Below are positions 8,739 to 27,051 of a stretch of DNA of 32,000 bases, piece after piece (the stretch's first letter is position 1; the number at the start of each line of letters is the position of its first letter). Where the stretch lies: NCBI RefSeq assembly GCF_000018105.1, contig NC_009926.1, positions 1-32,000 of the forward strand, in the 5' to 3' direction. The notes beneath the pieces were generated by a model that was not told the origin of the DNA, did not search any database, and worked only from the letters and a program-made list of their open reading frames with translations. Both the position numbers and the translations under genes were made by a program. This stretch comes from Acaryochloris marina MBIC11017. GTDB taxonomy: Bacteria > Cyanobacteriota > Cyanobacteriia > Thermosynechococcales > Thermosynechococcaceae.

Positions 8739-9581
8739 TTATTTGGACTGGGATTTTTGAGGTGGAGACTGAGTTTGAGCCGTTCTCTGAGTCGCTGATT
8801 TGCGCCGATAACTATCGGCTTGAATTTCGATAATCAAGCCATGATGAATTAAGCGATCAATGGCAGCCACCGCCATCATCGAATCAGTGAAAATGTCATC
8901 CCATTGGCTGAAGGGTTGATTCGCTGTAATCAACAAACTTTTTCGTTCATAGCGATGCGCAATTAATTCAAACAGAACGGACGTTTCCGCTTCCGACTTT
9001 TTGCAATAGCCCAAGTCATCCAAGATCAACAGATCATAGCGGTCCAGTTTTTTGAGCATTGGATGCAGCTGCAGTTGGAGCTTCGCCTGTTGCAGTTGCT
9101 GGACCAATGCGTTGGCTGCAAAGAACTTCACCCGCTTACCGAATTCCAGCATCTTTTTGGACACCCCAGTGGCCAGATGTGTTTTTCCAACACCCGAGGG
9201 CCCCAGAATAAGGCAATTCTCGGCGCGCTCCAACCAACCCGGATCTGCGGCTAATTGCATCAAGGGAGCTGGATTGAGCTGGGGACAATGGCTAAAGTCA
9301 AAGTTGGTAAAACTTTTTGCGTTTGGGAGCCTGGCTTCGGTGAGGGCACGTTTTAGACGAGCTTGTTCTCTTCGTTGGGCCTCCGTTTCGCACAAGGCTA
9401 GTAAGAATTCCGCATAAGACCAGTTTTCCTGCATGGCTTGGGATTCGATAGATTCCCAATGGGTCAACATGTGGGAGAGCCTGAGCTTTTTTAAATAGAG
9501 GCTCAGGTGCTGGTAGGGGCTCAGCGGGGACTGAGCAGGAGGGGAGGAGTTTGTCATAAAGTTCAAGTGAATGTTGTTCAA
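8739..9581 (-). CDS. istB: IS21-family helper ATPase IstB
   Basis: Walker A LILGPSGVGKTHLA, Walker B LLILDDLGY, and a typical IstB N-terminus (..WSYAEFLLALCETEAQRREQARLKRALTEARLP..KSFTNFDF). The true start may be the ATG at 9557. Confidence 0.9.
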   Translation of the reverse strand: MNNIHLNFMTNSSPPAQSPLSPYQHLSLYLKKLRLSHMLTHWESIESQAMQENWSYAEFLLALCETEAQRREQARLKRALTEARLPNAKSFTNFDFSHCPQLNPAPLMQLAADPGWLERAENCLILGPSGVGKTHLATGVSKKMLEFGKRVKFFAANALVQQLQQAKLQLQLHPMLKKLDRYDLLILDDLGYCKKSEAETSVLFELIAHRYERKSLLITANQPFSQWDDIFTDSMMAVAAIDRLIHHGLIIEIQADSYRRKSATQRTAQTQSPPQKSQSK

Positions 9582-11034
9582 TGCTGAGGTCAGGAACCTG
9601 CTTCATCTGAGGCGGCTCAAACTGTTTTTTCAGGCGATTGAGGGTAAGGCTGGATGAGCGAAGCTGCTGCTGTAAGTACACTGCTACGGCCTGTTCTTTA
9701 TCTTGAACCGCAGCAATATACAGGGCTTCCACGATGATCTTGGCAGCCTGCTCCAGGTCAAATTGGGCTTTGAGCTGTTCCCAGATTTGGCGGTATTCAG
9801 GATTGGGAAGTAGGTCTGATTGCCAGGTGCAATAGATAAAAGCACGAGGCTTCAATCGCATTGAACCAATAACATGGCGATAGTTGATGCAACGGTCGCG
9901 ACGTTTGCCTTTGCCACTGACGCGCTTCCTCGGCAATTCCACCACCGGGTGTCGCTCCAGATAGCCGACAATCCGGTCATGGTATAGATGCAGTTCCAAT
10001 TGACGACCAATCAGTCGAGAAGGGACGGTGTATAGAATGCAGCGAACATCGATGGTGCTGCGTTTGCTGACTTTAGCCGTGAGCACTTCATAGTCAGGGG
10101 TTCGATATTTGGGCAGTGGTTGTAGATGGTCTTTCTCTTGCTCATACTTGGTTTGGCACTGCTGATTCAACTTGGCAACCTGTGCATCAATTAAGGCTTG
10201 ATACTCAGCAACGCTCGTAAAATCTGCACTGCCGCGCAGATAGATCGCCTGCTTAATTCGGTTCTTCAGATGACCATGGGGAGATTCAATGGAGCCATTC
10301 TCATGGGCTACACCTTTGTTGTTACGAGTGGGTTCTAGCCGATAGTGGTCACACAGTTCGTCGTACAGACGAGTGAGGTTTTTGGACCGGCGGCCGCCCA
10401 TGTTGCGATAGGCTGCACTCAAACTATCAGTACGATGCTGTGTAGGAACACCTCCACAGGCTGCAAAGGCATTTTGCAATCCTTCTGAGAGGGCGACAAA
10501 GCTTTCGCCTCCTTCGATGATCTGGGCATATCGCCAGCCGCTGTATCCCAGACGGTAATGGTATATCAGGTGCTCAAAGGGTTTGCCGGCAATGGTAATC
10601 GTGATGCCCTTGAGTTCTGTAAAGTCGGAAAACCCTTGTACCCCGGGTTCATGACGCAATTCAAACATCACTTCAGGGCTTGGTCCATGTAAGGCTTTCC
10701 ACGTTCTCACCCGACGTTGTAGGGTCCGCAGGACTTGGGGATACTGGCCTGGATACTTATCCTGCAGGTACTCATACAGGGTCATGGGTTTGAGGCGTGG
10801 GTCTCGACGCAGCATTGGTTCTAGCTCGTCTTCCCACACATCAGCTAAGGGGTCGGGAACGGTGCGTTGGTCCTGAAGGCGGCCGCGATTAGGTTGATGG
10901 GTGCCGGCCTCAATTCGTTGTCCGGTTCTTGTAGATATTTCGGCAATGTAAGCTGCTTCAGCTTGTTTCAAGCCGAGGTCTCTTCCGTTCATATAAACAC
11001 GAGTATGATAGGAATCAATTCTTTTGTTAGGCAC
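9298..11034 (-). CDS. istA: IS21-family transposase IstA (DDE)
   Basis: N-terminal HTH region and a DDE core (..FSDFTE.., ..HRTDSLSAAY.., ..NNKGVAHENGSIESPHGHLK..). The ORF runs about 284 nt into istB in another frame. The last ~90 codons look off-frame, so the functional stop is probably expected near 9560. Confidence 0.85.
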   Translation of the reverse strand: MPNKRIDSYHTRVYMNGRDLGLKQAEAAYIAEISTRTGQRIEAGTHQPNRGRLQDQRTVPDPLADVWEDELEPMLRRDPRLKPMTLYEYLQDKYPGQYPQVLRTLQRRVRTWKALHGPSPEVMFELRHEPGVQGFSDFTELKGITITIAGKPFEHLIYHYRLGYSGWRYAQIIEGGESFVALSEGLQNAFAACGGVPTQHRTDSLSAAYRNMGGRRSKNLTRLYDELCDHYRLEPTRNNKGVAHENGSIESPHGHLKNRIKQAIYLRGSADFTSVAEYQALIDAQVAKLNQQCQTKYEQEKDHLQPLPKYRTPDYEVLTAKVSKRSTIDVRCILYTVPSRLIGRQLELHLYHDRIVGYLERHPVVELPRKRVSGKGKRRDRCINYRHVIGSMRLKPRAFIYCTWQSDLLPNPEYRQIWEQLKAQFDLEQAAKIIVEALYIAAVQDKEQAVAVYLQQQLRSSSLTLNRLKKQFEPPQMKQVPDLSIEQHSLELYDKLLPSCSVPAEPLPAPEPLFKKAQALPHVDPLGIYRIPSHAGKLVLCGILTSLVRNGGPTKRTSSSKTCPHRSQAPKRKKFYQL

Positions 11035-11237
11035 TTGTACAGCCCTCTATTGATTAGGGATGTAAAAAGTGTCTTTTTTCTTGAGATTGAATTCTAGAAA
11101 CGCGATCTCACACATCATTTCTAGGGAATTGAGATCTAGTTTTATCCTTCTCAGGGGATGCCTGGTTTCTTCATAGCTATAGCCGACGTGACATCGTCAT
11201 TAATCCGTCAGCTCGATTGTCGTCTAATAGGCAATGG

Positions 11238-13125
11238 TTGGTCCGACTTGGAAGCAAGACACGGTGGACTTAATCGGGTCAAGAATCGGCTTCAACGATC
11301 TGCCAAAAGGGATGCCTACGTTGTTCCCGCGAACTGTAGCCGCATTGGAGTCTTGAATGCCTTACGGGACAAGAATATCCCTGGTGCTGATACCGCCAAT
11401 CTTATCTGTGGCACCTGCATTGCCAGAGAAGCCTGTATCAATGCAGATGGGCCAGGGTATGGGTTCTTGAATCAGCGGCGCAATGTCCTAGGTGCCCCAC
11501 TGTTGAGGGCACATCCTGACTCACTGCCCGACCCAGAGGATTACCCACTGGAAAACACGATGCTGATCTGGGATGAACCCGGTCAGAACTTCCAGGTCAA
11601 GCAGTCCGTGACTGTTACCTTTAGCGACTTGCAGCAAACCATCACAACCCTGATTATCTATCCAGAAATCTTTGCCCTAGTGCAACCGTTGCTCTCAGCC
11701 CTCCTCCCCTTGATGGATGGGTCTATAAAGCTAGGGAAATATGGCTTAAATCATCTAGCCCTCAAAAGCCGTTTGCCCGATATGGCAGGAGTGAAACTCG
11801 GAGAAATCGCCCTAATCCTGATGCCCAACCTGGGATTCCTCAATACCTCTTCCGACTATGGGATTGACCTTGCAGACTTACCCAAGCAACTCAGAAAGAA
11901 GTTCTCTGAACGGGACTCGGAGATGGCAGAGCAGGCCAGGAATGGGGTGGTTAAACAGTGGCTCATTCCCCTGATCCGAATCCTGCAAGGAGGAGCAGGA
12001 TGTATCCAAGTCAGTCGCTATGGCCTCCTGACCCTTAATACCCCCAATCCTCGACATCGAGACTTAGCCCAAGCTGCTCAAGCCAATGTATTTCTCGATG
12101 CCACCCTCTCCCGTGAAGACTTAGCACTCAAGCTGGGTTGCTCTCCTGATGAAATCTTAGTAGTTCGTCAAGCCGTCCCAGACACCGGAAATCTGGAGGT
12201 GATTCAGGTGGCCGACATGGGGCGCGTGGGCATGAGTCGAGGTGGGGATCAGACCAAGCGCATTGATGCACTAGTCCAGCATTACCAAGATTTGGATGCA
12301 GTGAATACTAGGACTATCGATTTTAAGCAGTTTGAAAAGGATGGGGCCTGGTGGCGTGATAGCCGAGGGGTGAATGATTTCCTCACCGTTCAGACCCTAG
12401 TACTGGTAGGCACTCCCTGTCGTAACCTCAATGACTTAGCTGCTGAGTTTGCCATCACGAGCGGATACTACCCAGAGGAAGAAGATCCAGCGTTCAAAGC
12501 TTTCGTGGACCGATCGATACTAGCTGAGATTCACCAAGCGATTGGACGACTCAGAGCACATCGACGCCCTGGAGAATCCCTGCAAGTGGTGTTGATTTCC
12601 AATATCGATATGGACATTCCGGTGCAGCAGATCCAAGCCAAGGATCTGACGATTGAAGCCGCCCACAAAACGGAGCGGGTAAGACTTGCGATTGAATCAG
12701 CCATCCTCCAGCTCCAAGCCAAAGGCGAGAAGGTCACTCAGCAGATCGTCTCAGCGATGACCAAAATCCCCAGAGGGACGATTGCGCGATACTGGCGTCT
12801 GTTCATTTCGCTTTTAGATAGTTTTAATAGCAAAGTGAACAATTCCAAGAATGTGTCAGAGGCAGACCAAGACTGCCATCAAGCGATTGCGGGTGTTCTA
12901 GATGAGCTGGCGGATCTGCCTATAGATGACCTACTACCCAGCCTCAATGAAGTGTTCTTTGACTGGCTCAAACCCAGAGAATGGGCCAACGTCTGGGACA
13001 AGGTGAGCATATCGTGCCAGATGGCGATTCTAGAGGGGGTGGCGATGATGTTACCAGTGAAGCTGCTGGAGGAAACGTTGCCAGAAAAACCCAATCAAAC
13101 AGTTCAGTTGAGCCAACATGTCTAA
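11238..13125 (+). pseudogene. plasmid replication primase-helicase (CyRepA1-like), 3' part
   Basis: Continues ..WSDLEARHGGL.., with a Walker B-like MLIWDEPGQ, helicase C-terminal motifs (TLVLVGTPCRN.., HQAIGRLRAHRR) and a C-terminal helical domain. The track ORF start at 11158 lies inside the IS end. Confidence 0.75.
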
Positions 13126-13367
13126 AAAAAGCTTGTTAAAGATCAAAAGAGATCTTGCATACGTTGTAGAACTCTTTGCTTATAATTCTCTAGTGTTGCG
13201 AAAGGGTCAGATTAAGAGAATGTAGAGAACATATACTAACTTACAAAAACTTGCGATGATAACCTGTCCATAATCATAAGCAGTATTACCACTAGTTTAC
13301 TTAATTAGTGATAGAAACACTCAAGCTTTGTTTTTCAACTCAGTGTATAAACTGTATTAACCTAAAT

Positions 13368-14546
13368 ATGTTCAGAAATAAACCAGTGAAACCATCTGTG
13401 CTTGATATCTTCTGTGGAGCAGGTGGTATGAGCCTTGGTTTTCAGAAAGCTGGCTGCAAGATACTGGGTGGAATAGATAACAACCCACATGCTGTAAAAA
13501 CTCACCATCAGAATTTCCCTAAATGCAAGTTGAAACTTGATGCTACTGACATTCGTGACATAGAAAATCTTGAAGATCTTGGTATAGATCCTAAAGAAGT
13601 AGACATTCTAATTGGTGGACCACCATGTCAAGTCTTTTCCAGAGTTGGCATTGGAAAAATGAAAAATCATTTAAAGCGAAATATTGAACAAGATCCAAGA
13701 AATTTTTTATACAAGGAATATATCCGATTTCTTCGTTATTATAAGCCTCTATTTTTTATAATAGAAAACGTTGATAATCTTGCAAATAAAAAAGATATAT
13801 TAGAAACAATTATAAAAGAATTAGAAGCTTGTGGATATCGAGTTGAATACAACGTTTTAGATGCATCAGATTTTGGAGTTCCTCAGCGAAGACTTAGGAT
13901 TTTTATCATCGGGTCACGCCTAGATCTAGGATGGAAACCAATTTTTCCAAAATCAAAAACTAAAATACCACTTACTGTCGGGGAAGCCATCAGTGACTTA
14001 CTTGAACTTCAACCTACTGCTATGCCTTTAAAACTCAAATCTAGTGGGCCTAAACAGAAAGATTGTGAACTACCATATCGTAGTGCGCCTGAATCAGGGT
14101 ATCAACGTATCATGCGACGATATAACGGTGATCTTGTAAGAAACCATATATGCCGTGCTCATAACTATGAAGATCTAAAAATATTTGACATGCTGAAACA
14201 AGGACAAAAATATGGTGATTTACCTCAGGAGGTAATGCGTTATCGGGTCGATATTTTTAAGGATAAGTACAAACGTCTTATCTGGGATGATCTATCTTGG
14301 ACACTAACTGCTCATATGCGTAAAGATTGCTTAGCCTACATTCACCCTACTCAAATACGAAGTATTTCAGTCAGAGAGGCTGGTAGGATTCAGAGTTTTC
14401 CTGATAACTTTATATTCTATGCGCCAATGACAAGAATGTTTGAGCTTGTGGGCAACTCAGTCCCCCCTCTTCTGGCTGAGTCTGTAGCGAAACCTATAGT
14501 AAAAAAGATTCGTGAATATTATAATGTACTAAGCTTAAAAGAATAA
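13368..14546 (+). CDS. DNA (cytosine-5)-methyltransferase
   Basis: Motif I DIFCGAGGMSLGF, motif IV GGPPCQVFS, motif VI FIIENV, motif VIII QRRLRIFIIG, motif IX-like RSISVREAGRIQSFPD, motif X GNSVPPLL. ATG at 13368; the track ORF begins at an upstream GTG. Confidence 0.93.
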   Translation: MFRNKPVKPSVLDIFCGAGGMSLGFQKAGCKILGGIDNNPHAVKTHHQNFPKCKLKLDATDIRDIENLEDLGIDPKEVDILIGGPPCQVFSRVGIGKMKNHLKRNIEQDPRNFLYKEYIRFLRYYKPLFFIIENVDNLANKKDILETIIKELEACGYRVEYNVLDASDFGVPQRRLRIFIIGSRLDLGWKPIFPKSKTKIPLTVGEAISDLLELQPTAMPLKLKSSGPKQKDCELPYRSAPESGYQRIMRRYNGDLVRNHICRAHNYEDLKIFDMLKQGQKYGDLPQEVMRYRVDIFKDKYKRLIWDDLSWTLTAHMRKDCLAYIHPTQIRSISVREAGRIQSFPDNFIFYAPMTRMFELVGNSVPPLLAESVAKPIVKKIREYYNVLSLKE

Positions 14547-14709
14547 TTAGCTAAGAATTATAAGAATAGATTTTTTAGCATATATTTATCTAACGGGATA
14601 TTTAAAATATTCATATATTTACTCCAATTTTAAATCCTAATAATAACATTCTTAACTGAGAATACTTCAAAAGTTATTTTTCCTTAGTAGAAATATTTCA
14701 GCAACGCTT

Positions 14710-16881
14710 ATGTCTCATAGTTCTATATCATCAGTTTCAACCTCTTTGCCACTACGTCCTAGGGCTCGATTACTGAGAACAATCGGAGATGAGTTAATTA
14801 GTAGCGAAATAGTTGCTGTAATTGAATTAGTAAAAAATGCTTATGATGCCGACGCTACTATTGTTTTAGTTAAATTTATTGAACCTCTTGAGACTGGTAA
14901 AGGATCAATTGAAATTATCGACAATGGTAATGGTATGTCACTCAAGATCATTGAAAAATCTTGGATGGAACCAGCAACTTTTTCAAAGAAAAATACTAAA
15001 TTTAGTAAGATTTATCGTCGTCGATTTTTAGGAGAAAAAGGTGTTGGGAGATTTGCAACATCAAAATTATCTGACTTTTTAGAAATCGTTACGAGGTATA
15101 TAGAGTCAGATAATGAAATACGAGCAATTTTTGATTGGAAGCAATTTGATGATGAAGAAAAATATTTAGATCAAGTAGAAGTTTTATGGGATATGACTAG
15201 CCCTGATGAAATTTGTTCTGAGGGTTCAATTATGATGTTGTATGACTCATGTGAGATTAGAGGTTCGGATGGAATCACGCATGGAACTATTCTACGAATG
15301 TCAGATCTTAGAGCTAATTGGGACAGGGACCAGCTTCTACTTCTTCGAACTGCCTTATCCCGATTAATTTCTCCATTCAGTGATGCGAAAGACTTTCAAG
15401 TCATTTTAGATCTGCCAAAACAATATGAAAATCTTTCTGGTAAAGTAGAGACTCCTAGAGTATTTGAAAAGCCTCCATACCGTATTAATGGAAAGGTAGA
15501 TTCTGAAGGAAATGCCAATCTTATTCTGAATGTTATGGGTAAAGATCCCCAACATATTTCAGAAGTTTTAGGGAAGGATAAAAATATACCTCAATGTGGA
15601 CCATTTGAGGTGGATATTCGAGTGTGGGACTTAGACAGAGATTCATTAAAACTATTAGTAAAAGATCAACAATCTACATTAAAAGATATTCGTAAAGATA
15701 TCAAGGACATAGCAGGAATTAACATTTACAGAGATCAATTTCGTGTGCTTCCATATGGAGAGAGAGACAATGACTGGTTGAGATTGGACATAAGGAGAGT
15801 ACAGGCTCCAACACTTCGCTTATCGAATAATCAGATCGTCGGGTACATACTCATTTCTTCTGACCTAAATCCCGAATTAAGAGATCAAAGTAACCGGGAG
15901 GGGATCGTAGAAAGCCAAGCATTAAGAGATTTACGATTCTTAGTAAGAACTATCCTAGCTAAACTTGAGGCTGAAAGATATAATACTCGTCGACAACAAG
16001 AGCAAGAAACTCCCATTTCTAGCCAAGGAAGCCTCTTTGGAAATTTTAATCTTGATCCGCTTCGGACAGCTCTAACCGAAAAATATGGTAAAGAGAAAGA
16101 TCTCATAGGCATAATTGATAGCCAGGAAAAACAGCTTGAAGAGAGAGTAAAAGTCGTAAAAGAGGTGTTATCTAGATATCAACGCCTTGCTTCACTTGGA
16201 CAATTAATAGATACTATTCTTCACGATGGTCGAGCTCCATTATATAAGATTGATAATGAAGCTACATTACTAATTAAAAATATTGAGAAATCTGATAATA
16301 ATAATTCATTATTTGATAAATTAAAAAAACGAGGCGAATCGATAAAAAAATATTCTTCACTATTAGGAAATCTTTTCAAAAAAATTGAACCTTTTGGAGG
16401 ACGCAAGCGAGGTCGTCCTAAAAAAATAATTCTTGAAGAAGTTATTTCAGATGCATTCATGCTGTTAGAAAGCGATCTAAACAAAGCAAACATTAAAATT
16501 CATATTCCAACAACTAAAACTACAGTTTTTGTCGAGTCTTCTGAGTTACAGCAGGTGATTATGAATCTTGTTGATAACAGTATATATTGGCTTAATAGTG
16601 TTGACGAAGATAAGAGATATATTAATGTATCTATTTCAAATAAGGAAAATCCTTCTGATGGAATTGATATTATATACTCTGATTCTGGTCCAGGTATAGA
16701 AGAAAAATTTAGAGAACATATTTTTGATCCATATTTTTCTACTAAACCTGATGGTGTCGGCCTTGGATTAGCAATTGCTGGGGAGATTTTAACAGAGTTT
16801 TACGAAGGAAGTTTAGAGCTGATAGAGAATACTTCTTCTTCTGGAGTTACATTCCGTATTCATCTAAATAAGAGAGTTTAG
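14710..16881 (+). CDS. dual-GHKL protein: N-terminal MORC/MutL-like ATPase module fused to a HisKA + HATPase_c histidine kinase core
   Basis: N-terminal Bergerat motifs: VIELVKNAYDADA (N-box), IEIIDNGNGM (G1), GEKGVGRFA (G2). C-terminal kinase motifs: H-box LIDTILHDGRAPL (His505, codon 16222-16224), N-box VIMNLVDNSIYW, G1 YSDSGPGI, F-box FDPYFSTK, G2 GVGLGLAIA. No transmembrane segment or classical sensor domain is visible. Confidence 0.8.
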   Translation: MSHSSISSVSTSLPLRPRARLLRTIGDELISSEIVAVIELVKNAYDADATIVLVKFIEPLETGKGSIEIIDNGNGMSLKIIEKSWMEPATFSKKNTKFSKIYRRRFLGEKGVGRFATSKLSDFLEIVTRYIESDNEIRAIFDWKQFDDEEKYLDQVEVLWDMTSPDEICSEGSIMMLYDSCEIRGSDGITHGTILRMSDLRANWDRDQLLLLRTALSRLISPFSDAKDFQVILDLPKQYENLSGKVETPRVFEKPPYRINGKVDSEGNANLILNVMGKDPQHISEVLGKDKNIPQCGPFEVDIRVWDLDRDSLKLLVKDQQSTLKDIRKDIKDIAGINIYRDQFRVLPYGERDNDWLRLDIRRVQAPTLRLSNNQIVGYILISSDLNPELRDQSNREGIVESQALRDLRFLVRTILAKLEAERYNTRRQQEQETPISSQGSLFGNFNLDPLRTALTEKYGKEKDLIGIIDSQEKQLEERVKVVKEVLSRYQRLASLGQLIDTILHDGRAPLYKIDNEATLLIKNIEKSDNNNSLFDKLKKRGESIKKYSSLLGNLFKKIEPFGGRKRGRPKKIILEEVISDAFMLLESDLNKANIKIHIPTTKTTVFVESSELQQVIMNLVDNSIYWLNSVDEDKRYINVSISNKENPSDGIDIIYSDSGPGIEEKFREHIFDPYFSTKPDGVGLGLAIAGEILTEFYEGSLELIENTSSSGVTFRIHLNKRV

Positions 16882-16882
16882 T

Positions 16883-18049
16883 ATGTTTGAAATTACTACT
16901 TGGAGACTACTTATTGTTGATGATGATGAGGAAATATGTAAACAAGTTAAAGAAATATTAGAGGACGAAGAAATTAACAATGTTAGACTTTCTATTATAA
17001 TTACAACCGATTTTAATGATGCACTTGAAATCTTAGAGAATCAACGGATTGATCTCATCATCCTTGATGTTCGCGAAGGTTCACATGATGATAATCCTTC
17101 AGAAGAAATTGGAATAATTACATTAAACAAGATAAAAGAGAAGTGTTTTTTACCTATAATCTTTAATACCGGATTACCAAATCTAGTTGAACACTTAAGA
17201 TCTAACCTTATTCGTATTGTTCGAAAAGGAAAATCTGAAGAGTTATGGAATGAAATCAACAATGTATTTACAAGTAACCTACCAATTATTAATCGAGCAT
17301 TAGTACATCATTTCGAAGAGATACAGCGTCAATATATGTGGGAATTCATAGCTGATAATTGGCAAAGTATTTCTAGAGATAATGATAATCATGAATTAGC
17401 ACATTTATTAGCTCGAAGAATTTCTTTATCTTTATCAGCCGAAGAAATTTTAAGTTGGGTTTCACAACTAGGATTTACAAGTAAGGATTCAATTAAAAAA
17501 GAAGAGGTATCTCAAAGCCACCCTATTACTTATTACTTAATACCTCCTATTTCGAATTATCCACGACCTGGTGATTTATACGTTAAAGATAAAGAGGATA
17601 ATCCTACATATTGGGTTATTCTTAATCCATCTTGTGACTTTATTATTCGCAAGAATGGCAAGTGTAAAGTGGAGTATATCTTACTTGCTAACGCAAGTAA
17701 ATTGTCTGATCAAGAAGAGTATAAAAGCTGGTGTTTAAATTATTCAAACAGTCAAAAGAAAAAATTGATTAAACTAATTCAGGATAATAGAGAAGGTCAG
17801 TCAGAGCGTTTTTATTTTTTACCTGGTGTATGTGATTTTCCCGATTTAATTGTCGATTTCCAAGTTGTTGTTAGTATTAAGTATGATGATTTATCCAATG
17901 GAGCTTATAATCGGCTTGCTTCACTCGATAGTCCTCATGCTGAAGCCTTACTTACTAGATTCTCTCGGTACTTTGGCAGAGTAGGAAAACCTGACTTAGA
18001 TGCCGAAAGTATTCTATCTAAACTGCAGGAGGTTATCAGCAAGGATTAA
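16883..18049 (+). CDS. response-regulator receiver (REC) domain protein with an unknown ~260-aa C-terminal output domain
   Basis: REC signatures: LLIVDDDEE acidic pocket, DLIILD (Asp62, codon 17066-17068), IIFNTG, VRKGK. The start codon lies 1 nt after the kinase stop (TAG-t-ATG). The C-terminal domain (..PGDLYVKD..WVILNPSCDF..RFYFLPG..LIVDFQ..ASLDSPHAEALLTRFSRYFGRVGKPDL) matches nothing I can name. Confidence 0.8.
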   Translation: MFEITTWRLLIVDDDEEICKQVKEILEDEEINNVRLSIIITTDFNDALEILENQRIDLIILDVREGSHDDNPSEEIGIITLNKIKEKCFLPIIFNTGLPNLVEHLRSNLIRIVRKGKSEELWNEINNVFTSNLPIINRALVHHFEEIQRQYMWEFIADNWQSISRDNDNHELAHLLARRISLSLSAEEILSWVSQLGFTSKDSIKKEEVSQSHPITYYLIPPISNYPRPGDLYVKDKEDNPTYWVILNPSCDFIIRKNGKCKVEYILLANASKLSDQEEYKSWCLNYSNSQKKKLIKLIQDNREGQSERFYFLPGVCDFPDLIVDFQVVVSIKYDDLSNGAYNRLASLDSPHAEALLTRFSRYFGRVGKPDLDAESILSKLQEVISKD

Positions 18050-18083
18050 GTATTTTTATTATCCTAAACACGCTAATCCAAAA

Positions 18084-18107
18084 CCTTGCACATTAGTGCA
18101 AGGCTTT
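18084..18107 (+). terminator. hairpin terminator after the REC-effector gene
   Basis: CCTTGCAC-atta-GTGCAAGG, an 8-bp perfect stem, followed by CTTT, 35 nt after the stop at 18049. The U tract is weak. Confidence 0.5.
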
Positions 18108-18180
18108 AGCTGCTACACACCTCTAAAAATAGAGATTTATAATACTAACAGCTAGAGGTTTTCATATCAAATCAGATCGA

Positions 18181-18301
18181 TAAGTTGACGACGCAGCTCT
18201 AGATTGGGACTTTCAGTCCCTTCTTTAACCTCTGGACTTTCAGTCCAGAGTGGTTAAGTTTAAAATTTTTTTCATCCATCATATTCTAAGCAGTCAACTT
18301 A
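18181..18301. repeat. twin palindromes GGACTTTCAGTCC bracketed by a 9-bp inverted repeat
   Basis: GGACTTTCAGTCC occurs at 18207-18219 and 18234-18246, centre-to-centre 27 bp. Each extends to a 5-6 bp stem hairpin. TAAGTTGAC at 18181-18189 and GTCAACTTA at 18293-18301 flank them. Confidence 0.6.
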
Positions 18302-18506
18302 CACAACTTAGAAGAGCTGTTTCAAGTTTGCCAGGGGTAATTCGAAATCACTGGAAGTCCGTAAAGAGCAAGGGCACTATGGAGAATCTAGTTACGCAAT
18401 ATTCTTGGTTCTAAACTTTCTCCCAGAAAATTAAACAGCTCTGGACTGCTTAGGGTTTTCTCTTTTTTTACTTTGACAATTTATATAGTCCAACAGTTAT
18501 CTAATA

Positions 18507-18652
18507 GAAATGAGAAAATCAGCTGCCCCGCTTCAAGCAGACGGGGTATGGAATACGATTTGCTCCCAAACCGTAGATTTGGATTACAATCCCATTTCTT
18601 TGCTGCAAGCAGCGGGAAATCTACCCTCACTAGATTAAATATTTCTCATTTT
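18507..18652. other. inverted-repeat-bounded structured element (~145 bp), possible ncRNA or MITE-like relic
   Basis: AAATGAGAAA (18509-18518) pairs with TTTCTCATTT (18642-18651). Inside are the hairpin CCCCG-11nt-CGGGG (18526-18546) and two similar direct motifs: GCTTCAAGCAGACGGGG (18530-18546) and GCTGCAAGCAGCGGG (18602-18616). The 60-aa track ORF here looks non-coding. Confidence 0.3.
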
Positions 18653-18831
18653 TAAATCAGCTTTTCAGCACCCTCACTGACTCCAACCCAGCCTGCACAA
18701 TCTCCTCAATCTGCACCATCGTCTTCAGTAGGCGCAGCCCAATTACCCGATCAGCACGAAAAATACCTCCAAAGATGCAACTACTTCCAGAAACTGATCA
18801 AAAACTCAATCCGACCAAACACAGGTGCAGT

Positions 18832-19001
18832 ATGATTTATCCTGCGGGATTAGGTTGGGATAGCTCATCAACCCAGAGGATAATCAGGTAAAAATCTATC
18901 GGCCTAATCAGGTTGTTGAGATGCTAGAATCTCCCAGCTCGGTTTCTGGAGAAGAGGTATTGCCAGGGTTTAGTCTCAATCTAGAGTGGATCTGGGGATG
19001 A
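18832..19001 (+). pseudogene. second Uma2-family (DUF820) 3' remnant, frameshifted
   Basis: From 18864: LINPEDNQVKIYRPNQVVEMLESPSSVSGEEVLPGFSLNLEWIWG*. Upstream ..MIYPAGLGW is in another frame and a TAG immediately precedes LINP. By eye it is about 70 percent identical at DNA level to 241-381. Confidence 0.6.
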
Positions 19002-19043
19002 GGTTGATTCAAACTTGCTTAGAACACCAGCTTAAAGTTGATG

Positions 19044-19424
19044 TCAATTCTGCTTAGTACCCATTTTTTTATAAAACTCACGGTTGTATTCTTTTGCTGC
19101 TAATTCCATCCCCTCTACAACATCATCTGGCACGATTCCACTAAATGAGTCAGCATCTCCACCTGGATCCATCATCAGAACTTCACAAGGATGAGTCTTT
19201 AAAATCACCCACCAGTTGGAGTTGGCCTGTTCTACACCAATGAGATGATAGTTCCACTGGGAATGAACAATTTTCAAATCCTTAATAAACTGCCGATCAT
19301 ATGGAACAAACTCTATTGTTTGGGCACATTCTTCAATACTCCGATCTGAAGTGTTTGCTTCAACTGCTATAGCAACTGGTAAGGTTAACAAACTTACTGA
19401 TAGTGATATTAAAAGAGTCCGCAT
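19044..19424 (-). CDS. secreted hypothetical protein (signal peptide)
   Basis: Signal-like N-terminus MRTLLISLSVSLLTLPVAIAVEA. The start is 5 nt after the hydrolase stop, suggesting co-transcription. Confidence 0.55.
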   Translation of the reverse strand: MRTLLISLSVSLLTLPVAIAVEANTSDRSIEECAQTIEFVPYDRQFIKDLKIVHSQWNYHLIGVEQANSNWWVILKTHPCEVLMMDPGGDADSFSGIVPDDVVEGMELAAKEYNREFYKKMGTKQN

Positions 19425-19429: not shown

Positions 19430-22400
19430 TTAGTACAAGAAATTTGCAGGATTTAGTCTTTGACCAGAAGGGTCTCGGATCTCAAAATGTAAATGTGGTC
19501 CTGTTGTTCTACCGCTGTTACCAGAGAGGGCAATCACTTGGCCTTGCTTAACAGGATCACCTATTTGCACATTTGTAGCTGATAAATGCCCATAAACCGT
19601 AACATAACCGCTACTGTGCTGAATAAACACAAAATTGCCGTACCCTCCGCCACATCTAGACTCCAAGTGACCCTGCTGAGGACAATCTACTTTAACAGCA
19701 GTGACGACACCTCCATCTGATGCCCTAATTTCAGATCCTATCGGTGTACCGTAATCAATACCTCTGTGGAATCCTAATGATCGCGGACCATAGGGCGAAG
19801 TTATAGGATACTCAGTTGGTAAGTCAAACTGTCCAGTGGTTATCCCATCTCCCTGAACAAACGGCCCTAATTGACCATTAAGGTTACTCGCGATCGCACC
19901 AGGCGAACCCGGCACCCCAGCCACCTGTGAAGGCTTACAGGGCACCCCAGCCGAAGCCACCGTAGCAGGCGCATTGGTCGAAGCATCTCCAGTTGACCCA
20001 TACTTCTCAAAATTGGCTGGATTACTCCACACCTCACTTTCTTCAGGTCCACCGGGCAGCGAGGTCCATTGCCAAGGACTCAGCACCCTGTCTGCCAGGG
20101 CAAAGTTCCCTCGCTGAATCGCACCGATTAGATCAACATTCTTCTCAGCCCCAATGATTTTGATCCACTCCACCGCTGCTTGAGCCGCAACCGCCCGATC
20201 CCGTGTCCAGCCATCCAGCCCCGTTCGTTGCAGAAGGGACTGCCTAGACTCTGGTGTAAATTGATAAATTCCATAAGCACCTGTCTTAGGATTGGGCCTC
20301 CAATTCGTCCCATCCGTGCTTTCTCCAATTCTGATTCGGGCTAGATATTGCCTCAGATTATGGTCAGGATCGGCGGGGGCTGAATGGGTTGATGAGCCCT
20401 GACTTTGGCTATTGCTAGCGCTATTATTAAAGGTTGCCGCTGCTTGATCCGTACCCACATACCGCCAATGCCACGGCTCATAGCTCACCCCTTGGCTATT
20501 CCCCTTAGGAAACGACAGCTCAAACCCATACTTCCCCGCATTCTGCTGCATCCAGGCATATTCAGGAGTGTTAGCCCAAGATTCATTCAGGTAGGGATTC
20601 GCATTATTTCCTACATCCACGGCTAACCCCGTATGGTGCTCACTGTGGCCTGCGGGTGCTGATATCTTCGCTGCTGCTTCTGGAGAACCTTGCTCAGCGA
20701 CCTGGTCCGAGAACAACTCTTCTTGCAGCTTTCTATCCCGAAAGCCTGATACCGCCTTGATATCCAATCCTTGAGCCGCTGCATCAGCCCGCATTTGCTC
20801 AAAGGCTGACGCTGCATCTTGAGTCAGGCCAACTGTAGCCCCATCCACCGCAGTCACTTCATAAAGCTGTTCATCGGTTTCCTCATAGGGAAGATGCCCA
20901 TACTTAGTATTTGCGGCTCCCGCATCACTCTGGCCCGCTGTCGCAATAATCTGGTCGGGGTCGCAGTACACCCCAGCAGCCAAAGTTTGATTTCTCAAAC
21001 GTGCAAGACTAGCAGGCAAGTTCCGCCGACTCGCGACGAGGAACAGCCCATCTTCTTTGACAACATACGGTGTTGGAATCACCAGAAAGTGAGGTGTACA
21101 TTGCTGGCCGAGCAAGGGAATCATGACGCAGAACTGAAAGGCGACACTGAGCTTAGCCGTACTCTTTTGGTCGGGATACTCCGTGATTTTCTTGAGGACA
21201 AACTTGGTATGGCTATTCACCCCAAACGGATGAATCCCCGCAGGTTCCCAGCCTCCATTCACCCACTTCAGCAGTCCTTTTCCTCCTTTAACCCCTTGGC
21301 CATTCTTGCCCCCTGAGTCTCCTTGCACCCATTGTTTCCCTTCGATATCGTCATCCCCCGTCGCTTGGGCTACTGGAGAGCTGATAAACTTCCGCATCTC
21401 AAAATGGGGGCAGTTATCCGCTCTTTGGTTTTGGGTCTGGCCGAGGGTGCATTTGATGGGTCTAAACTTTTGGTTTTCACTGCCACCGGATAGCGAATGT
21501 TGGATGGAAGGCTCCTCTGGCCCCTCAACTCCGCTATAGGCAATATCAAACCTCGCGAATAAGTCCCCCGCAAAAAAGCTAAAGGCTAGGTCAAAAGGGA
21601 GCTTATCAATCGGAATCTCTGAGAGGCCAGGAACAGAGTTGATGGTCTTGTCCTTCGCTCCAGGTATCTCTTCAATCGCCATGTCCGCAATCTTAGGTAG
21701 GGTCTGCTCAATGGGCTGATTGACCAGATCGGGGACGGCACCCAAGGGCAAATTCTTTAGTTCAGGCACGGCCTTGATCACTTCCTTGACAGCAACATCT
21801 GTTCCTTTTGCCAAGATATAAGCTTGTGCCCGTTTCCTCACCTGTTGCCAGTTACCATTTATCGCATCACCGACGAGAGGGACAACCTGATTAACGGGCA
21901 GTTTCTTGAGGGTGGGGCCAATCTTCTTACCAATCCCCGCTAGCTGAATCTGCTCAGCCTTGGAGATGACCCCCTGCCAATTACCCCGTGCTAGGTCTTG
22001 AAGCGGAATCCCTTTAAAAGCGGGTATCTTGCTGAGTCTAGTAATCAGCACTTTCTCTCCTGTAGTCAGGGCGGCTTGCTGGAGCTGTTTACCTGCTTGA
22101 GAAGGGTCATACAATACCCCTAAAGCTGCTTGGATGGCCGGGGCGGCATCATCAACGGTGATTTTCTCGCCATTGTTGATCTTGGTGTAGAGTTTATCGA
22201 TTTCATCAACCGTCAGGCCATAAACGAGGGGCACATCGCCAATGGGTAATCCTGCAATATCCGTCCCCTGTTTAGCTGAAATATCTCGTAAGGTCAGTTT
22301 GGTGAAGGATGCCGTGACGGGATTTTGCTGTAAGTCTCCAAACTTGAGGATTTGATCAGGAGTCGCCCCTTGAGGCCATGCCCGATCTACTTGGTAAGGA

Positions 22401-22636
22401 AGCTGCACTCCATTGGGTAAGGGTGGGATTTCGACATAGCCAGCTTGCTCAGCCGTCGTTAGTTGTCGAAACGTAGGGGACGGTCCAGGATCGGGATCAT
22501 AGTAAAGTCCCGGTAAGTTGACGGGGGTATCTGGGCTAAGTGCTGCCGTCTGTTGCTGCTGTTGAGCTAGAGCAGGGGCTATCTGCGTCAAAGTCGGTAG
22601 ACCAGCCAGGGCCATAGCTATGAGTTTCTTTTTCAT
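19430..22636 (-). CDS. large secreted multi-domain peptidoglycan hydrolase (M15/VanY-like + lysozyme/transglycosylase-like + M23)
   Basis: Signal peptide MKKKLIAMALAGLPTLTQIAPALAQ (ATG 22636). VanY/M15 motifs: SGFRD..SEHHTGLAVDV..YEPWHWRY. Lysozyme-like motif: IGESTDG...GAYGIYQFT. M23 motifs: HRGIDYG...GPHLHFEI. The N-terminal ~600 aa are unassigned. Confidence 0.85.
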   Translation of the reverse strand: MKKKLIAMALAGLPTLTQIAPALAQQQQQTAALSPDTPVNLPGLYYDPDPGPSPTFRQLTTAEQAGYVEIPPLPNGVQLPYQVDRAWPQGATPDQILKFGDLQQNPVTASFTKLTLRDISAKQGTDIAGLPIGDVPLVYGLTVDEIDKLYTKINNGEKITVDDAAPAIQAALGVLYDPSQAGKQLQQAALTTGEKVLITRLSKIPAFKGIPLQDLARGNWQGVISKAEQIQLAGIGKKIGPTLKKLPVNQVVPLVGDAINGNWQQVRKRAQAYILAKGTDVAVKEVIKAVPELKNLPLGAVPDLVNQPIEQTLPKIADMAIEEIPGAKDKTINSVPGLSEIPIDKLPFDLAFSFFAGDLFARFDIAYSGVEGPEEPSIQHSLSGGSENQKFRPIKCTLGQTQNQRADNCPHFEMRKFISSPVAQATGDDDIEGKQWVQGDSGGKNGQGVKGGKGLLKWVNGGWEPAGIHPFGVNSHTKFVLKKITEYPDQKSTAKLSVAFQFCVMIPLLGQQCTPHFLVIPTPYVVKEDGLFLVASRRNLPASLARLRNQTLAAGVYCDPDQIIATAGQSDAGAANTKYGHLPYEETDEQLYEVTAVDGATVGLTQDAASAFEQMRADAAAQGLDIKAVSGFRDRKLQEELFSDQVAEQGSPEAAAKISAPAGHSEHHTGLAVDVGNNANPYLNESWANTPEYAWMQQNAGKYGFELSFPKGNSQGVSYEPWHWRYVGTDQAAATFNNSASNSQSQGSSTHSAPADPDHNLRQYLARIRIGESTDGTNWRPNPKTGAYGIYQFTPESRQSLLQRTGLDGWTRDRAVAAQAAVEWIKIIGAEKNVDLIGAIQRGNFALADRVLSPWQWTSLPGGPEESEVWSNPANFEKYGSTGDASTNAPATVASAGVPCKPSQVAGVPGSPGAIASNLNGQLGPFVQGDGITTGQFDLPTEYPITSPYGPRSLGFHRGIDYGTPIGSEIRASDGGVVTAVKVDCPQQGHLESRCGGGYGNFVFIQHSSGYVTVYGHLSATNVQIGDPVKQGQVIALSGNSGRTTGPHLHFEIRDPSGQRLNPANFLY

Positions 22637-22676
22637 GGGGAAATGCTGTGGTGCGATAAAGGAATGTACCGCCAGC

Positions 22677-22714
22677 AAAAACGGCCCCGATCTGAGCTAT
22701 TAACTGAAGTGTTC
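22677..22714 (+). repeat. 38-bp direct repeat, copy A (left of NACHT gene)
   Basis: AAAAACGGCCCCGATCTGAGCTATTAACTGAAGTGTTC matches copy B at 25430-25467 at 33 of 38 positions. Confidence 0.7.
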
Positions 22715-25456: not shown

Positions 25457-25467
25457 CTGAAGAGTTC
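25430..25467 (+). repeat. 38-bp direct repeat, copy B (right end of NACHT gene)
   Basis: AAAAACGGCCCAGATCGGAGCCGTTAACTGAAGAGTTC. It includes the last 8 codons and the stop of the NACHT ORF. Confidence 0.7.
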
Positions 25468-25489
25468 AAATTGAAAAACTGAAGTCAGC

Positions 25490-25600
25490 TTATTTCAAGA
25501 GCAAGATCCAAGCGATTATCCCCAAGATCCAGCCAATGGGACCTGCGAGGAGCAGGAACGGTGTGAGGACGATCAGGAGGATGACAAGACAACCTTTCAT
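25490..25600 (-). CDS. 36-aa hydrophobic membrane peptide, translationally coupled to the upstream gene
   Basis: MKGCLVILLIVLTPFLLLAGPIGWILGIIAWILLLK*. Its ATG overlaps the upstream stop (TGATG). Below the ORF-track cut-off. Confidence 0.45.
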   Translation of the reverse strand: MKGCLVILLIVLTPFLLLAGPIGWILGIIAWILLLK

Positions 25601-27051
25601 CAAACACCCTCCACAAAGTAAATTTCTACTTCCTTATCAAAGTGATAGAGGCCACTGCGAGAACCACTAGAACGATTGGGAGCAAAGCTATTCACGAGAG
25701 ACGAGGCTCTATCTCCCACACTGCTTGAACGGAGCTGGTCAAAGCCCACATTGAGGCCCGCCCTGAGCAGCTTGTTGCCAAAACCTTCTCCTTGACCTTT
25801 GAGCTTGGCTTGCAGATAGGGAGACTGCTTGTATTGGACAACCGCAACAGGCGTCTTTCTGCTTTCTGGTGACTCATCCGTCAGATTGACATGCTCAATG
25901 GGCTGTTGGTTGACTTCCACCACTTGCATACTCAAAAAGTCACCCTCCGCACTGGTCACTTCTGCCAAGACTTTGGAGCCTTTCTTCGCCATTGCCCCTA
26001 AGTCTTCACTCAGGGTCAACAGATACCGCTGACCGATGATCGCGTCACTGTTCTGGGGTATCCAGGTAATCGGATTGTCGAGCTTCGCCTTGGCTGTCGT
26101 ACCAGGGGAAATCAGTCCCTTTCCGAGTGGACTACTGCTAGCGGGGTAGAGGGCAGTGGGTGCATCGGATACCTGATTATCCTCCAGCAAATCACCCGTC
26201 AAAGAAGCCACCAGTATTCCTTGGGGTGGAGGGGCTTTGGCAACAGGTTTTGTGGTAATCGGTTTACGGACGGGGTGAGAGGTGGATACCTTGATGGGAC
26301 GAATGGGCTTGGGTTGAATGGGTCGAGCAGGCTGCACGGGCTTCGGAGTAAAGGCCGACTGCTGGGCAAGGCTGAAGTTAGCAGCAGGCTTGGGGGCTTG
26401 AGCGACGGGTCGGGGGGCTGGGGGTCTAGCCGCAACAGGCTGAGGCTTGGGAGCAGGTCTATTGCGATAAACGATCCGAGGTCGAGACGGGGGTACAGAC
26501 CGACGTACCTGGATGGGTCGGGTCACCCGATGGGCTGCACTGGGCGGTCTGCGGTGGGACTGGGCTGGCTTCGTCTTCGGCACCACTATCGGCTTCTGGG
26601 GGACTGCTGTGAGCTTGTTCTGGCCCGGAGCATCCGTCACATTTCCCGTTTCATACTTCTGCTTTAGCTCAGAAATTTGGACGGCTTGACTCTTGATAAT
26701 GGCATCCTTATCATCCTCAGCCATCCCAATCGAGGGCTGGGGCCTGGTGGCAACCGCTGGCTTGGGAGTATCACTGTTCCCCGATGTCACGGCTTGAACC
26801 ACCGCCAGAATTAGAAAGATACTCCCTCCAATTACCCCAATCTGGATGGGTAACCGTCGTCTTGTCTTGGTCGGTGTCTGGGCATCAAACTCATGGGTCA
26901 GTTCCGGTAAATGGAAGTCTTGCAGGGTGGCGGGTACAGGTTCTTGGGGTTGTGCCTGTGCTGGGTCAGGCTTGGTATCCTTGACACCCGCCTTGGGCTT
27001 ATTCTTGTTAATCGCAGCTAGGGCTTCTTTTTTGGTCTTGATATCAGACAT
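25600..27051 (-). CDS. VirB10/TrbI-like T4SS protein (N-terminal TM, long Pro-rich linker, C-terminal beta domain)
   Basis: The architecture matches VirB10: a cytoplasmic N-terminus, TM LPIQIGVIGGSIFLILAVVQAV, about 150 aa of Pro-rich repeats (PKP/RP), then a globular C-terminus. Its operon position after the VirB8-like gene also fits. No decisive motif. Confidence 0.45.
   Translation of the reverse strand: MSDIKTKKEALAAINKNKPKAGVKDTKPDPAQAQPQEPVPATLQDFHLPELTHEFDAQTPTKTRRRLPIQIGVIGGSIFLILAVVQAVTSGNSDTPKPAVATRPQPSIGMAEDDKDAIIKSQAVQISELKQKYETGNVTDAPGQNKLTAVPQKPIVVPKTKPAQSHRRPPSAAHRVTRPIQVRRSVPPSRPRIVYRNRPAPKPQPVAARPPAPRPVAQAPKPAANFSLAQQSAFTPKPVQPARPIQPKPIRPIKVSTSHPVRKPITTKPVAKAPPPQGILVASLTGDLLEDNQVSDAPTALYPASSSPLGKGLISPGTTAKAKLDNPITWIPQNSDAIIGQRYLLTLSEDLGAMAKKGSKVLAEVTSAEGDFLSMQVVEVNQQPIEHVNLTDESPESRKTPVAVVQYKQSPYLQAKLKGQGEGFGNKLLRAGLNVGFDQLRSSSVGDRASSLVNSFAPNRSSGSRSGLYHFDKEVEIYFVEGV

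Follow-up and report, generated by a model that had tools for sequence, protein, structure and literature searches.

The first 32,000 nucleotides of contig NC_009926.1 of Acaryochloris marina MBIC11017, treated here as one window, contain an AT-rich island (13126-18660) that encodes three proteins on the forward strand: a C5 cytosine DNA methyltransferase, a histidine kinase carrying a MORC-like ATPase module, and a protein with a receiver (REC) domain followed by a C-terminal output domain. The corresponding open reading frames (ORFs) occupy positions 13308-14546, 14710-16881, and 16883-18049; no further same-strand ORF of 80 or more amino acids was found in the island. The receiver gene begins 1 nt past the stop codon of the kinase gene, and the methylase gene lies 163 nt upstream of the latter. 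These coordinates agree with an earlier note on this DNA, made from the sequence alone, in which exactly three same-strand genes had been counted and the receiver start had been placed 1 nt after the kinase stop.

The G+C content of the island is 0.343, against 0.491 in the rest of the 32-kb window. Measured in 500-nt segments, it is approximately 0.50 before position 13000, varies between 0.29 and 0.40 inside the island, and regains 0.50 only near 19500, so that the left edge is sharp and the right edge gradual. The abrupt fall after 13125 described in the earlier note is thus real, while the recovery that it had placed near 18660 is gradual. The G+C content at third codon positions (GC3) of the three genes is 0.25, 0.22, and 0.22, compared with 0.48 to 0.55 in the flanking genes. 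Both departures from the surroundings constitute strong evidence that the island was acquired horizontally, and the foreign origin suspected before is borne out by composition, not by HIP1 sites. Five of these sites are present outside the island and none inside it, exactly as had been counted, but the 5.5 kb of the island would be expected to hold no more than 1.05 sites if their density were that found outside. Their absence (P(0) = 0.35) is therefore uninformative, and HIP1 depletion was rejected as evidence of foreign origin.

The mechanical ORF of the methylase starts at a GTG at 13308; independent gene callers on public contigs choose the ATG at 13368, which is most likely the true start and gives a protein of 392 amino acids (13368-14546, +). 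The product matches PF00145 (DNA_methylase) over profile positions 3-323 of 324 (E 7.8e-70) and TIGR00675 (dcm) with 215.8 bits at a cut-off of 100.65. Motifs I, IV, VI, VIII, and X are present as FCGAGG, PPCQ, ENV, QRR, and GNSVPP, confirming the complete Dcm-type enzyme that had been read from the DNA before.

The second gene encodes a kinase of 723 amino acids, in which no 19-residue segment is hydrophobic enough to form a membrane helix. Pfam places HATPase_c_3 at residues 35-152 (E 1.8e-17) and HATPase_c at residues 611-721 (E 1.9e-21), so the cytoplasmic protein with a GHKL module and a kinase core that had been proposed is what the searches returned. Its AlphaFold (AF2) model, of moderate confidence (mean predicted local distance difference test, pLDDT, 75.7), splits into two halves. 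The N-terminal half (14764..15909, +) consists of a GHKL ATPase (residues ~19-217) and an S5-like transducer (residues ~230-400). Foldseek aligned some 470 columns of it with the corresponding ATPase modules, likewise GHKL+S5, of MORC2, MORC3, and SMCHD1, with E values from 2e-11 to 1e-10 and a target-normalised template modelling (TM) score of ~0.5; the designation MORC-like, already used for this module on first reading, hence rests on structure as well as on the Pfam label. Twelve residues, E39, N43, D46, D71, G73, G75, G108, K110, G111, G113, R114, and R396, do not vary among the 79 homologs compared, and the GHKL+S5 module with intact ATP-binding motifs that characterises MORC and paraMORC proteins is present. 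Residues 22-234 also matched positions 10-199 of the BbrUII/HgiDII restriction enzyme family NF050001 (E 1.3e-14; 53.7 bits, the family cut-off being 550), and the N-terminus matched the REase_II models of PADLOC with a score far under their membership cut-off. A MutL-type DQHA..E endonuclease motif was considered at residues 392-401 and dropped because of its different spacing and the lack of conservation at Q393 and N395.

The middle of the protein (15916..16395, +) forms a coiled coil and the helices of the dimerisation and histidine phosphotransfer (DHp) domain, modelled at residues 403-433, 463-527, and 531-562. It is followed by the catalytic ATP-binding (CA) domain (16420..16881, +). 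The C-terminal half superposes on the DHp and CA core of HK853 and ZraS (Foldseek E ~1e-12, TM 0.65), and full-length kinase models of the AtoS and ZraS type align over residues 474-720, with His505 (codon 16222-16224) in the first DHp helix. Neither HisKA nor HEF_HK of Pfam matched the kinase. Of the full HisKA and HATPase core previously claimed, the HATPase_c part is therefore sustained and the Pfam HisKA assignment is not, although a DHp helix pair with His505 is supported by the AtoS/ZraS-type models and the HK853 fold. His505 is invariant in 79 of 79 kinases and is followed by E or D in 78 of them (H505-D506 in the window). The boxes of the CA domain are kept in 75 to 79 of the 79 homologs: N619 and N623; D658, G660, and G662; F672; and G682, G684, and G686.

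The third gene specifies a protein of 388 amino acids that was modelled with higher confidence (AF2 pLDDT 86.6). Its REC domain (16883..17272, +) was recognised by Response_reg PF00072 at residues 10-65 (32.7 bits, cut-off 30.2), and comparison of the family profile with receivers in the PDB extends it to residues ~7-135; Foldseek aligned it with AdeR and RR468 at TM scores of 0.75 to 0.85. Asp62 (codon 17066-17068) is present in all of 111 receivers compared, D14 in 110 (one gap), threonine or serine at position 96, and K115 in 107. The two residues between which the earlier note had drawn a phosphorelay are thus invariant (79 kinases compared for His505, 111 receivers for Asp62); their codons, and that of Cys251 discussed below, were verified in the DNA. 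Kinase and receiver together carry what a canonical two-component pair requires, namely, the DHp histidine, complete N, G1, F, and G2 boxes, and a REC domain with an acidic pocket, Asp, Thr/Ser, and Lys.

Between the REC and output domains lies a conserved helical linker (17279..17467, +; residues 133-195, with AF2 helices at 133-164, 169-183, and 186-195) that contains the motif LAYLLARRLA. R178 is found in 97 of the 111 receivers, Y151 and R179 are largely conserved, and no Pfam family matched this segment. The output domain itself (17495..18049, +; residues 205-388) is family-specific and of the alpha/beta type in the AF2 model. Its sole fully invariant residue among the 111 receivers is Cys251 (codon 17633-17635), situated in the sequence GDLY...LTPSCD; P249 is present in 110, P314 in 109, G368 in 108, and D252 and R366 in 105 each. 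A reading of the Cys motif as a C-X5-R site of the protein tyrosine phosphatase (PTP) type was dropped because the Arg/Lys position is not conserved. The domain had no Pfam match in any of 20 members and no sequence match in the PDB, and helix-turn-helix (HTH) or winged HTH (wHTH) families did not match the receiver even at E ≤ 10. Of 1.84 billion cluster representatives, 2154 matched a profile of the output domain at E ≤ 1e-3; the top 150 were proteins of about 380 residues with the domain at the same place, or shorter ones that are probably fragments. Judged from these sequences, the domain appears to be specific to the REC-linker-output architecture.

When the whole receiver was compared with the PDB by Foldseek, receiver domains dominated the top 50 matches listed. 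In a viral library, which contains fewer receivers, three toxins of the MazF/PemK type were matched with E values of 4.5e-3, 7e-3, and 4e-2: an endoribonuclease, a PemK-like protein, and, at 7e-3, a MazF toxin; the best match of the MazF/PemK type had a TM score of 0.66 normalised to the 108-residue target. By eye, the receiver motifs GD(L/I)Y...YWVLLTP, FLPG, VDFQ, and ASLDSP plus a helix ending in FGR can be aligned with motifs of PemK/MazF. In profile comparisons with hhalign, the output domain (74-sequence profile) scored 20.8 against MazF (P 0.0076, probability 5 %), a reversed control reached 18.4, and block shuffles gave a mean of 12.8 ± 2.4, with 1 in 40 attaining the real score. The comparison is only suggestive with this larger profile and was insignificant with one of 4 sequences, and Pfam PemK did not match the output domain. 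A protein search with MazF gave only near-identical NdoA sequences of Bacillus. On the basis of these models, the odds that the domain may adopt a MazF/PemK-like fold are roughly even.

Relatives of the kinase number in the thousands, and the best 120 are nearly all full-length and contain the same two Pfam domains. Scanning one genome per species yielded at least 578 stretches that encode such a kinase, of which 80 loci were analysed by searching six-frame ORFs with the three window proteins and clustering all neighbours. The loci span Cyanobacteria, Chloroflexi, Actinobacteria, Verrucomicrobia, Planctomycetes, Acidobacteria, Bacteroidetes, Firmicutes, Proteobacteria, and methanogenic archaea. 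With the kinase present in 80/80, a receiver with the same C-terminal domain is encoded directly downstream in 72/80, mostly at a distance of -4 to +20 nt, an overlap of 4 nt being common. A C5-methylase is found in the neighbourhood in 66/80 loci and within 2.5 kb in 64/80; in these 64, it lies on the strand of the kinase either upstream (37) or downstream (14), or else on the opposite strand (13). Vsr occurs in 27/80 loci, and any other gene family in 5/80 at most. No conserved nuclease gene was detected in the 80 loci and no recognisable nuclease domain in the island, such as a type II restriction-modification (R-M) system would possess. Conservation of the trio as a unit was the test that the earlier note had set for its proposal, and the trio is clearly conserved in this way, in defence or mobile contexts.

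Many chromosomal copies of the cassette sit in neighbourhoods that resemble defence islands. Others are carried by plasmids: 45 plasmid records (~50-75 kb) of Campylobacter jejuni, C. coli, and C. armoricus encode the kinase, in the gene order kinase, receiver, dcm. One of them, C. jejuni plasmid p15597A-2 (NZ_CP092024.1, 5401-9854), is conjugative (MOBP, MPF_T), about 50 kb in size, and carries the cassette beside VapD, a recombinase, and HicAB. The cassette or the kinase is also found on plasmids of Enterobacter, Bacillus, and Hymenobacter, while no phage record encoding the receiver was found. Several loci deviate from the three-gene layout. An HNH_2 nuclease is encoded upstream of the kinase in locus L057 (232-1002). 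In L075 (8137-9393, 11605-12936), an N6/N4 (D12-class) methylase replaces the C5 enzyme, and a divergent partner of 443 residues keeps only GDIF...CDL. In L063 and L072, a methylase is followed by a protein of 358 amino acids, a HerA-like ATPase, the kinase, and the receiver. Positions 20-1033 of L067 were also listed among the variant cassettes. In Acinetobacter baumannii (CP040048.1, 546593-550847), the gene for a kinase homolog with 24 % identity precedes one for a hypothetical protein of 637 amino acids instead of the receiver of about 380; this partner aligns weakly with the receiver profile, over a REC-like stretch only, which suggests other output proteins for the proteobacterial branch.

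Across 61 complete trios, kinase identities correlate with those of the receivers with a Spearman coefficient of 0.76 and with those of the methylases with a coefficient of 0.36. Many pairs of loci, such as L002/L030 and L079/L070, have kinases that are 50-67 % identical and methylases that are only 20-34 % identical and differ in length. The methylase is thus swapped between loci while the kinase-receiver pair is kept. Since the methylase is exchanged and the pair retained, kinase and receiver themselves would read no DNA sequence and the methylase would supply the target specificity. The pattern suggests that the methylase is the specificity element of the cassette, a role that may be likened to that of Mod in type III systems or PglX in BREX.

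Cassettes of this type are already on record, and the copy in the window is a divergent branch of a kind that is known computationally and has been validated in part; the statement in the earlier note that no such system had been described does not hold. Starting from a Pectobacterium locus, a soluble kinase with HATPase_c_3, a new DHp model (HEF_HK), and HATPase_c was described and related to paraMORCs (Bellieny-Rabelo, Pretorius & Moleleki 2021, Genome Biol Evol 13:evab024; PMC8011034). Over 644 regions, it was linked in 91.6 % to a receiver-like protein (Response_reg_2) without other known domains, a C5-methylase being dominant upstream and Vsr frequent downstream, and the relay was proposed to regulate R-M systems (PMC8011034). 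The same features recur in the island and its relatives: the kinase architecture with a histidine followed by an acidic residue, an adjacent receiver with an unassigned C-terminus, the neighbouring C5-methylase, Vsr, and the paraMORC link; kinase architecture, adjacent receiver, and C5-methylase neighbour are all found in the island itself. The window kinase, moreover, shows homology across more than 90 % of its sequence to proteins of Hymenobacter (31 % identity, E 1e-76) and A. baumannii (24 %, E 2e-28), genera listed in that paper (PMC8011034). HEF_HK (PF19191) gave no match at E ≤ 10 to the kinases of the window, Sulfitobacter, Streptococcus, and Marinobacter, nor at E ≤ 1 to those of Enterobacter, Hymenobacter, and Campylobacter; the A. 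baumannii homolog obtained 18.8 bits, below the cut-off of 24.1. Response_reg_2 (PF19192) matched neither the window proteins nor the homologs, although this model may be absent from the Pfam copy scanned. As these narrow models do not match, the cassette of the window represents a branch outside them. It further differs from the published set in that its REC domain is recognised by the canonical Response_reg, and in its clade, which is cyanobacterial, Chloroflexi, and so on, while the set is mostly proteobacterial. The paper is silent on the output domain of the receiver (PMC8011034).

A thematically related system, Ambrosia of Pseudomonas, comprises AbrR, AbrA, AbrB, AbrC, and AbrD, that is, an XRE protein, an N6-methylase, a kinase/HSP90-like ATPase, a REC protein, and an HNH protein (bioRxiv 10.1101/2025.09.30.679545). 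All genes were required for phage defence, which was lost in the REC mutant D60A, and protection came without host toxicity. The genes were induced on infection, a wHTH was assigned to AbrC, and a transcriptional relay was favoured; pre-methylated phage was not protected (10.1101/2025.09.30.679545). The likeness to the window cassette described here is one of gene content: a cluster of methylase, kinase/ATPase, and REC protein, with the phosphoacceptor Asp at D60 there and D62 here. In contrast to the five genes of Ambrosia, with an N6-methylase, an XRE protein, and a type IV-like HNH nuclease, the island comprises three genes with a C5-methylase among them, ORFs for XRE or HNH proteins are absent from 13126-19043, and the wHTH reported for AbrC has no detectable counterpart in its receiver. 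A relationship between the two is made plausible by the existence of variants with HNH_2 (L057) or an N6-methylase (L075); the variant cassettes resemble the layout of Ambrosia and suggest a larger modular family.

Other known systems share parts of this architecture. In mobile operons resembling R-M systems, Iyer, Abhiman & Aravind (2008, Biol Direct 3:8) described GHKL+S5 modules associated with cytosine methylases and Vsr. Among their paraMORC1-5, none is fused to DHp and CA domains or paired with a receiver, a word that is absent from the paper (Biol Direct 3:8). The window kinase is like these in its C5-methylase-linked GHKL+S5 half, with a fold matching MORC2/3. It is unlike them in that the cassette lacks the superfamily II (SF-II) helicases, restriction-endonuclease (RE) fold, HNH, or TIR domains that occur there. 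With the BbrUII/HgiDII enzymes, the kinase shares the homologous N-terminal GHKL region, whereas the C-terminal two thirds of that model are unmatched and a kinase core takes their place in the window protein. Restriction enzymes of the BbrUII/HgiDII type also partner with C5-methylases. Detocs, reportedly described by Rousset et al. in 2023, is said to employ a kinase (DtcA), a buffer receiver (DtcB), and a receiver-effector (DtcC) in a phosphorelay for anti-phage defence. Its logic of a kinase acting on a REC-effector protein is comparable. The window cassette has no buffer receiver, no second receiver gene, and no PNP effector, and has a MORC-like sensor and a methylase partner instead. In its REC domain only (residues 7-86, E 8e-6 to 2e-5), the receiver matched PDC-M60B and PDC-M60C of PADLOC, two models with sizes that suit a REC-only and a REC-effector protein, and the kinase did not match any PADLOC kinase model. 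PADLOC 2.0 returned no system-level match for the cassette; the methylase matched the generic MTase_II, DrmMII, and DruM models. The DefensePredictor and BREX-diversity papers contain no description of a cassette of C5-methylase, kinase, and receiver.

The cassette is foreign to its surroundings, conserved as a unit, mobile, and found in contexts of the defence type, and both its ATPases and its phosphorelay residues are intact. It is of the kind found by Bellieny-Rabelo et al. and thematically the same as the validated Ambrosia. With a probability of about 45 %, we take the island to be an acquired copy of a widespread mobile R-M-like cassette in which methylase, MORC-like kinase, and receiver act together, the kinase being sensor and start of a relay to an effector. 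The methylase would mark resident DNA and provide the sequence specificity. The MORC-like module would engage DNA in an ATP-dependent manner and activate the attached kinase to signal that the DNA is unmodified or foreign. His505 would then autophosphorylate and pass its phosphoryl group to Asp62; the residues are invariant, and the chemistry proposed is that of the two-component paradigm. Phosphorylation would, finally, free the receiver's C-terminal domain, with its invariant Cys-Asp pair and perhaps a MazF/PemK-like fold, to stop the invader or the infected cell. That the output domain may be an effector rather than a regulator, a part of this same reading, is suggested by the missing conserved nuclease, the lack of HTH and Pfam matches, the invariant Cys and near-invariant Asp, Arg, and Pro, the one main architecture, and the weak MazF/PemK matches. 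The conserved Cys-Asp itself suggests a chemistry other than that of MazF.

A number of observations weigh against this proposal. Sixteen of the 80 loci lack a C5-methylase within 2.5 kb; some of them have it farther off or have an N6 methylase instead. The helical linker, with R178 and R179, might be a DNA-binding element. Similarity to MazF is weakly indicated, coming from the viral library only (Foldseek E 4.5e-3 to 4e-2) and from an hhalign probability of 5 %, and nothing in the output domain clearly corresponds to the catalytic Arg and Thr of MazF. That the methylase marks self may not apply, because pre-methylation did not protect phage in Ambrosia, and the authors of that study, who saw transcription induced by infection and assigned a wHTH to AbrC, favour a regulatory relay (10.1101/2025.09.30.679545).

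The main rival explanation, and the published view, is accordingly that of a regulatory two-component system without an effector of its own, in which, upon infection or stress, the phosphorylated receiver binds DNA and turns on the methylase gene or an R-M module, located in cis or elsewhere. It was put forward by Bellieny-Rabelo et al. (PMC8011034) and by the Ambrosia authors, who observed a reporter being induced on infection and assign a wHTH to AbrC (10.1101/2025.09.30.679545). The basic residues of the conserved linker would fit such a function, and so does the fact that 13 of the 64 methylase genes are oriented against the kinase, each forming a separate transcription unit and, therefore, a possible regulatory target. 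In the C5 type, however, methylase and Vsr are the only recurrent partners, so that there is no restriction gene to regulate; HTH and wHTH matches to the receiver are lacking at the permissive threshold given above; an invariant Cys accompanied by polar residues is more typical of an active site; and the sensor is an ATPase of the DNA-clamp type, not a ligand-binding domain. Weakened in this way for the three-gene type and strengthened by the induction data of Ambrosia, the regulatory model is considered possible but rather doubtful.

The cassette might also be a selfish module for addiction or plasmid stabilisation, in which loss of the methylase leaves unmethylated sites that trigger the relay and a toxic output, so that cells without the element would die, with phage defence being secondary or absent. 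Post-segregational killing by R-M systems is established. Carriage by plasmids (probably in Acaryochloris, in the 45 Campylobacter records, and in Enterobacter, Bacillus, and Hymenobacter), the adjoining toxin-antitoxin genes HicAB and VapD, and the possible MazF/PemK-like nature of the output domain would all suit this explanation. Yet many copies are chromosomal and located in defence-island-like neighbourhoods, and Ambrosia protects against phage without toxicity to the host (10.1101/2025.09.30.679545). As an account in its own right, addiction is judged unlikely; it overlaps largely with the sensor-relay-effector cassette favoured here, and the two are not mutually exclusive.

A role of the MORC/MutL-like ATPase with Dcm and Vsr in very-short-patch (VSP) repair or in the upkeep of 5-methylcytosine, the relay reporting DNA damage, would account for Vsr being the sole other recurrent neighbour (27/80 loci). 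MutL, which is likewise a GHKL+S5 ATPase, stimulates Vsr in E. coli. But Vsr is missing from most loci, including the window, and goes with C5-methylases generally; VSP repair as known has no place for a kinase-receiver relay that ends in an output domain with an invariant Cys, and the patchy, mobile distribution fits conflict systems, all of which renders repair a very improbable function. Least probable of all is the chance location of an ordinary signalling two-component system beside an orphan methylase, a view to which public annotation lends itself by stating only "sensor histidine kinase" and "response regulator" and which is contradicted by the survey, with methylase linkage in 64/80 loci across many phyla and frequent translational coupling of kinase and receiver, as well as by the 91.6 % kinase-receiver linkage and the dominance of DNA_methylase genes reported for those regions (PMC8011034).

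A more specific version of the sensor-relay-effector reading can be formulated, which is speculative and on balance improbable: the output domain would be a new phosphorylation-gated effector of the MazF/CcdB class with a Cys-Asp site, and the exchangeable methylase would serve as the specificity subunit of the MORC clamp. If true, the cassette would be a nuclease-free hybrid of R-M and abortive infection that turns the recognition of unmodified DNA into a His-Asp phosphorelay signal, a conversion that to our knowledge has been shown for no R-M-like system. The family concerned is large, with at least 578 genome loci and an output domain found in 2154 clusters at 50 % identity in bacteria and archaea, and it rides on clinically relevant conjugative plasmids such as those of Campylobacter. 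In the C5-methylase type, a His-Asp phosphorelay is directly coupled to a MORC-like DNA-clamp ATPase, the prokaryotic relative of epigenetic silencers in eukaryotes. Knowledge of the signal sensed by the clamp and of the role of the invariant-Cys domain would show how a methylation-linked ATPase signals rather than cuts and, at the same time, decide between transcriptional regulation and effector activation as the function of such relays.

The non-coding borders of the island bear on its insertion and expression. At the left edge, a span of 100 nt past position 13100 suffices for G+C to drop from 0.50 to 0.30-0.35, and the AT-rich non-coding region 13126..13367 (+) is presumed to hold the methylase promoter. 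Promoter-like matches in the island were no more frequent than in shuffled sequence, and no promoter was assigned. A hairpin, CCTTGCAC-ATTA-GTGCAAGG (18084..18103, +), read directly from the sequence 35 nt beyond the receiver stop codon, is a possible transcript end, put forward with low confidence; the terminator scan did not call it because a T run is lacking. The non-coding tail of the island (18050..18660, no strand assigned) contains two short elements (~18053-18198 and ~18516-18655) that matched several Acaryochloris plasmids in blastn searches with 94.5 % and 91-93 % identity, respectively. They recur on many Acaryochloris plasmids at 75-94 % identity, most of the better-matching records having multiple copies, and matches of the island DNA to PLSDB plasmids were confined to them. 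The replicon of the island is most likely an A. marina plasmid. Public short-read contigs containing the cassette, the longest of which measures 5592 bp, stop near both island edges. The two elements may be repeats resembling miniature inverted-repeat transposable elements (MITEs) that were involved in the insertion of the island; direct or inverted repeats, tRNA genes, and Rfam elements were not found at its borders.

The remainder of the window contains a number of further features. Just upstream of the ORF that precedes the island, an IS21-family element (8739-11034, -) encodes an IstA transposase (ORF of 578 amino acids; NF033546, E 2e-70) and an IstB helper ATPase (280 amino acids, E 2.5e-84); the start codon of one of these was probably called too early, as the mechanical ORFs overlap by about 280 nt. 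The ORF of 655 amino acids that directly precedes the island (11158-13125, +) had been labelled rep in the earlier note, which is unsupported, since it had no match in Pfam, NCBIfam, or PADLOC. At the left end of the window, three minus-strand genes unrelated to the cassette specify an R2K-clade ATP-grasp protein (533-1333), a short MreB/Mbl-like fragment of 165 amino acids (1515-2012), and a protein resembling NuoB or the hydrogenase small subunit (Oxidored_q6; 4078-4719).

Downstream of the island, a protein of 1082 amino acids (19430-22678, -) combines VanY (D-Ala-D-Ala carboxypeptidase) and M23 peptidase domains and is predicted to be a large cell-wall hydrolase; it is followed by an ORF of 126 amino acids (19044-19424, -) with a G+C content of 0.39 and no family match. 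The five same-strand ORFs at 25600-31976 (-; 483, 239, 461, 405, and 586 amino acids) lie in the G+C-richest part of the window (0.50-0.59) and had no Pfam match at E ≤ 1e-4. A second stretch of lower G+C content (0.38-0.43) extends from 23000 to 25500, with a spike in GC skew of 0.50 at 24501-25000. The gene at 22919-25456 (+) encodes a protein of 845 amino acids with a NACHT NTPase domain (E 3.2e-9), which may be an NLR/Avs-like defence gene and would then make this plasmid region a small defence neighbourhood.

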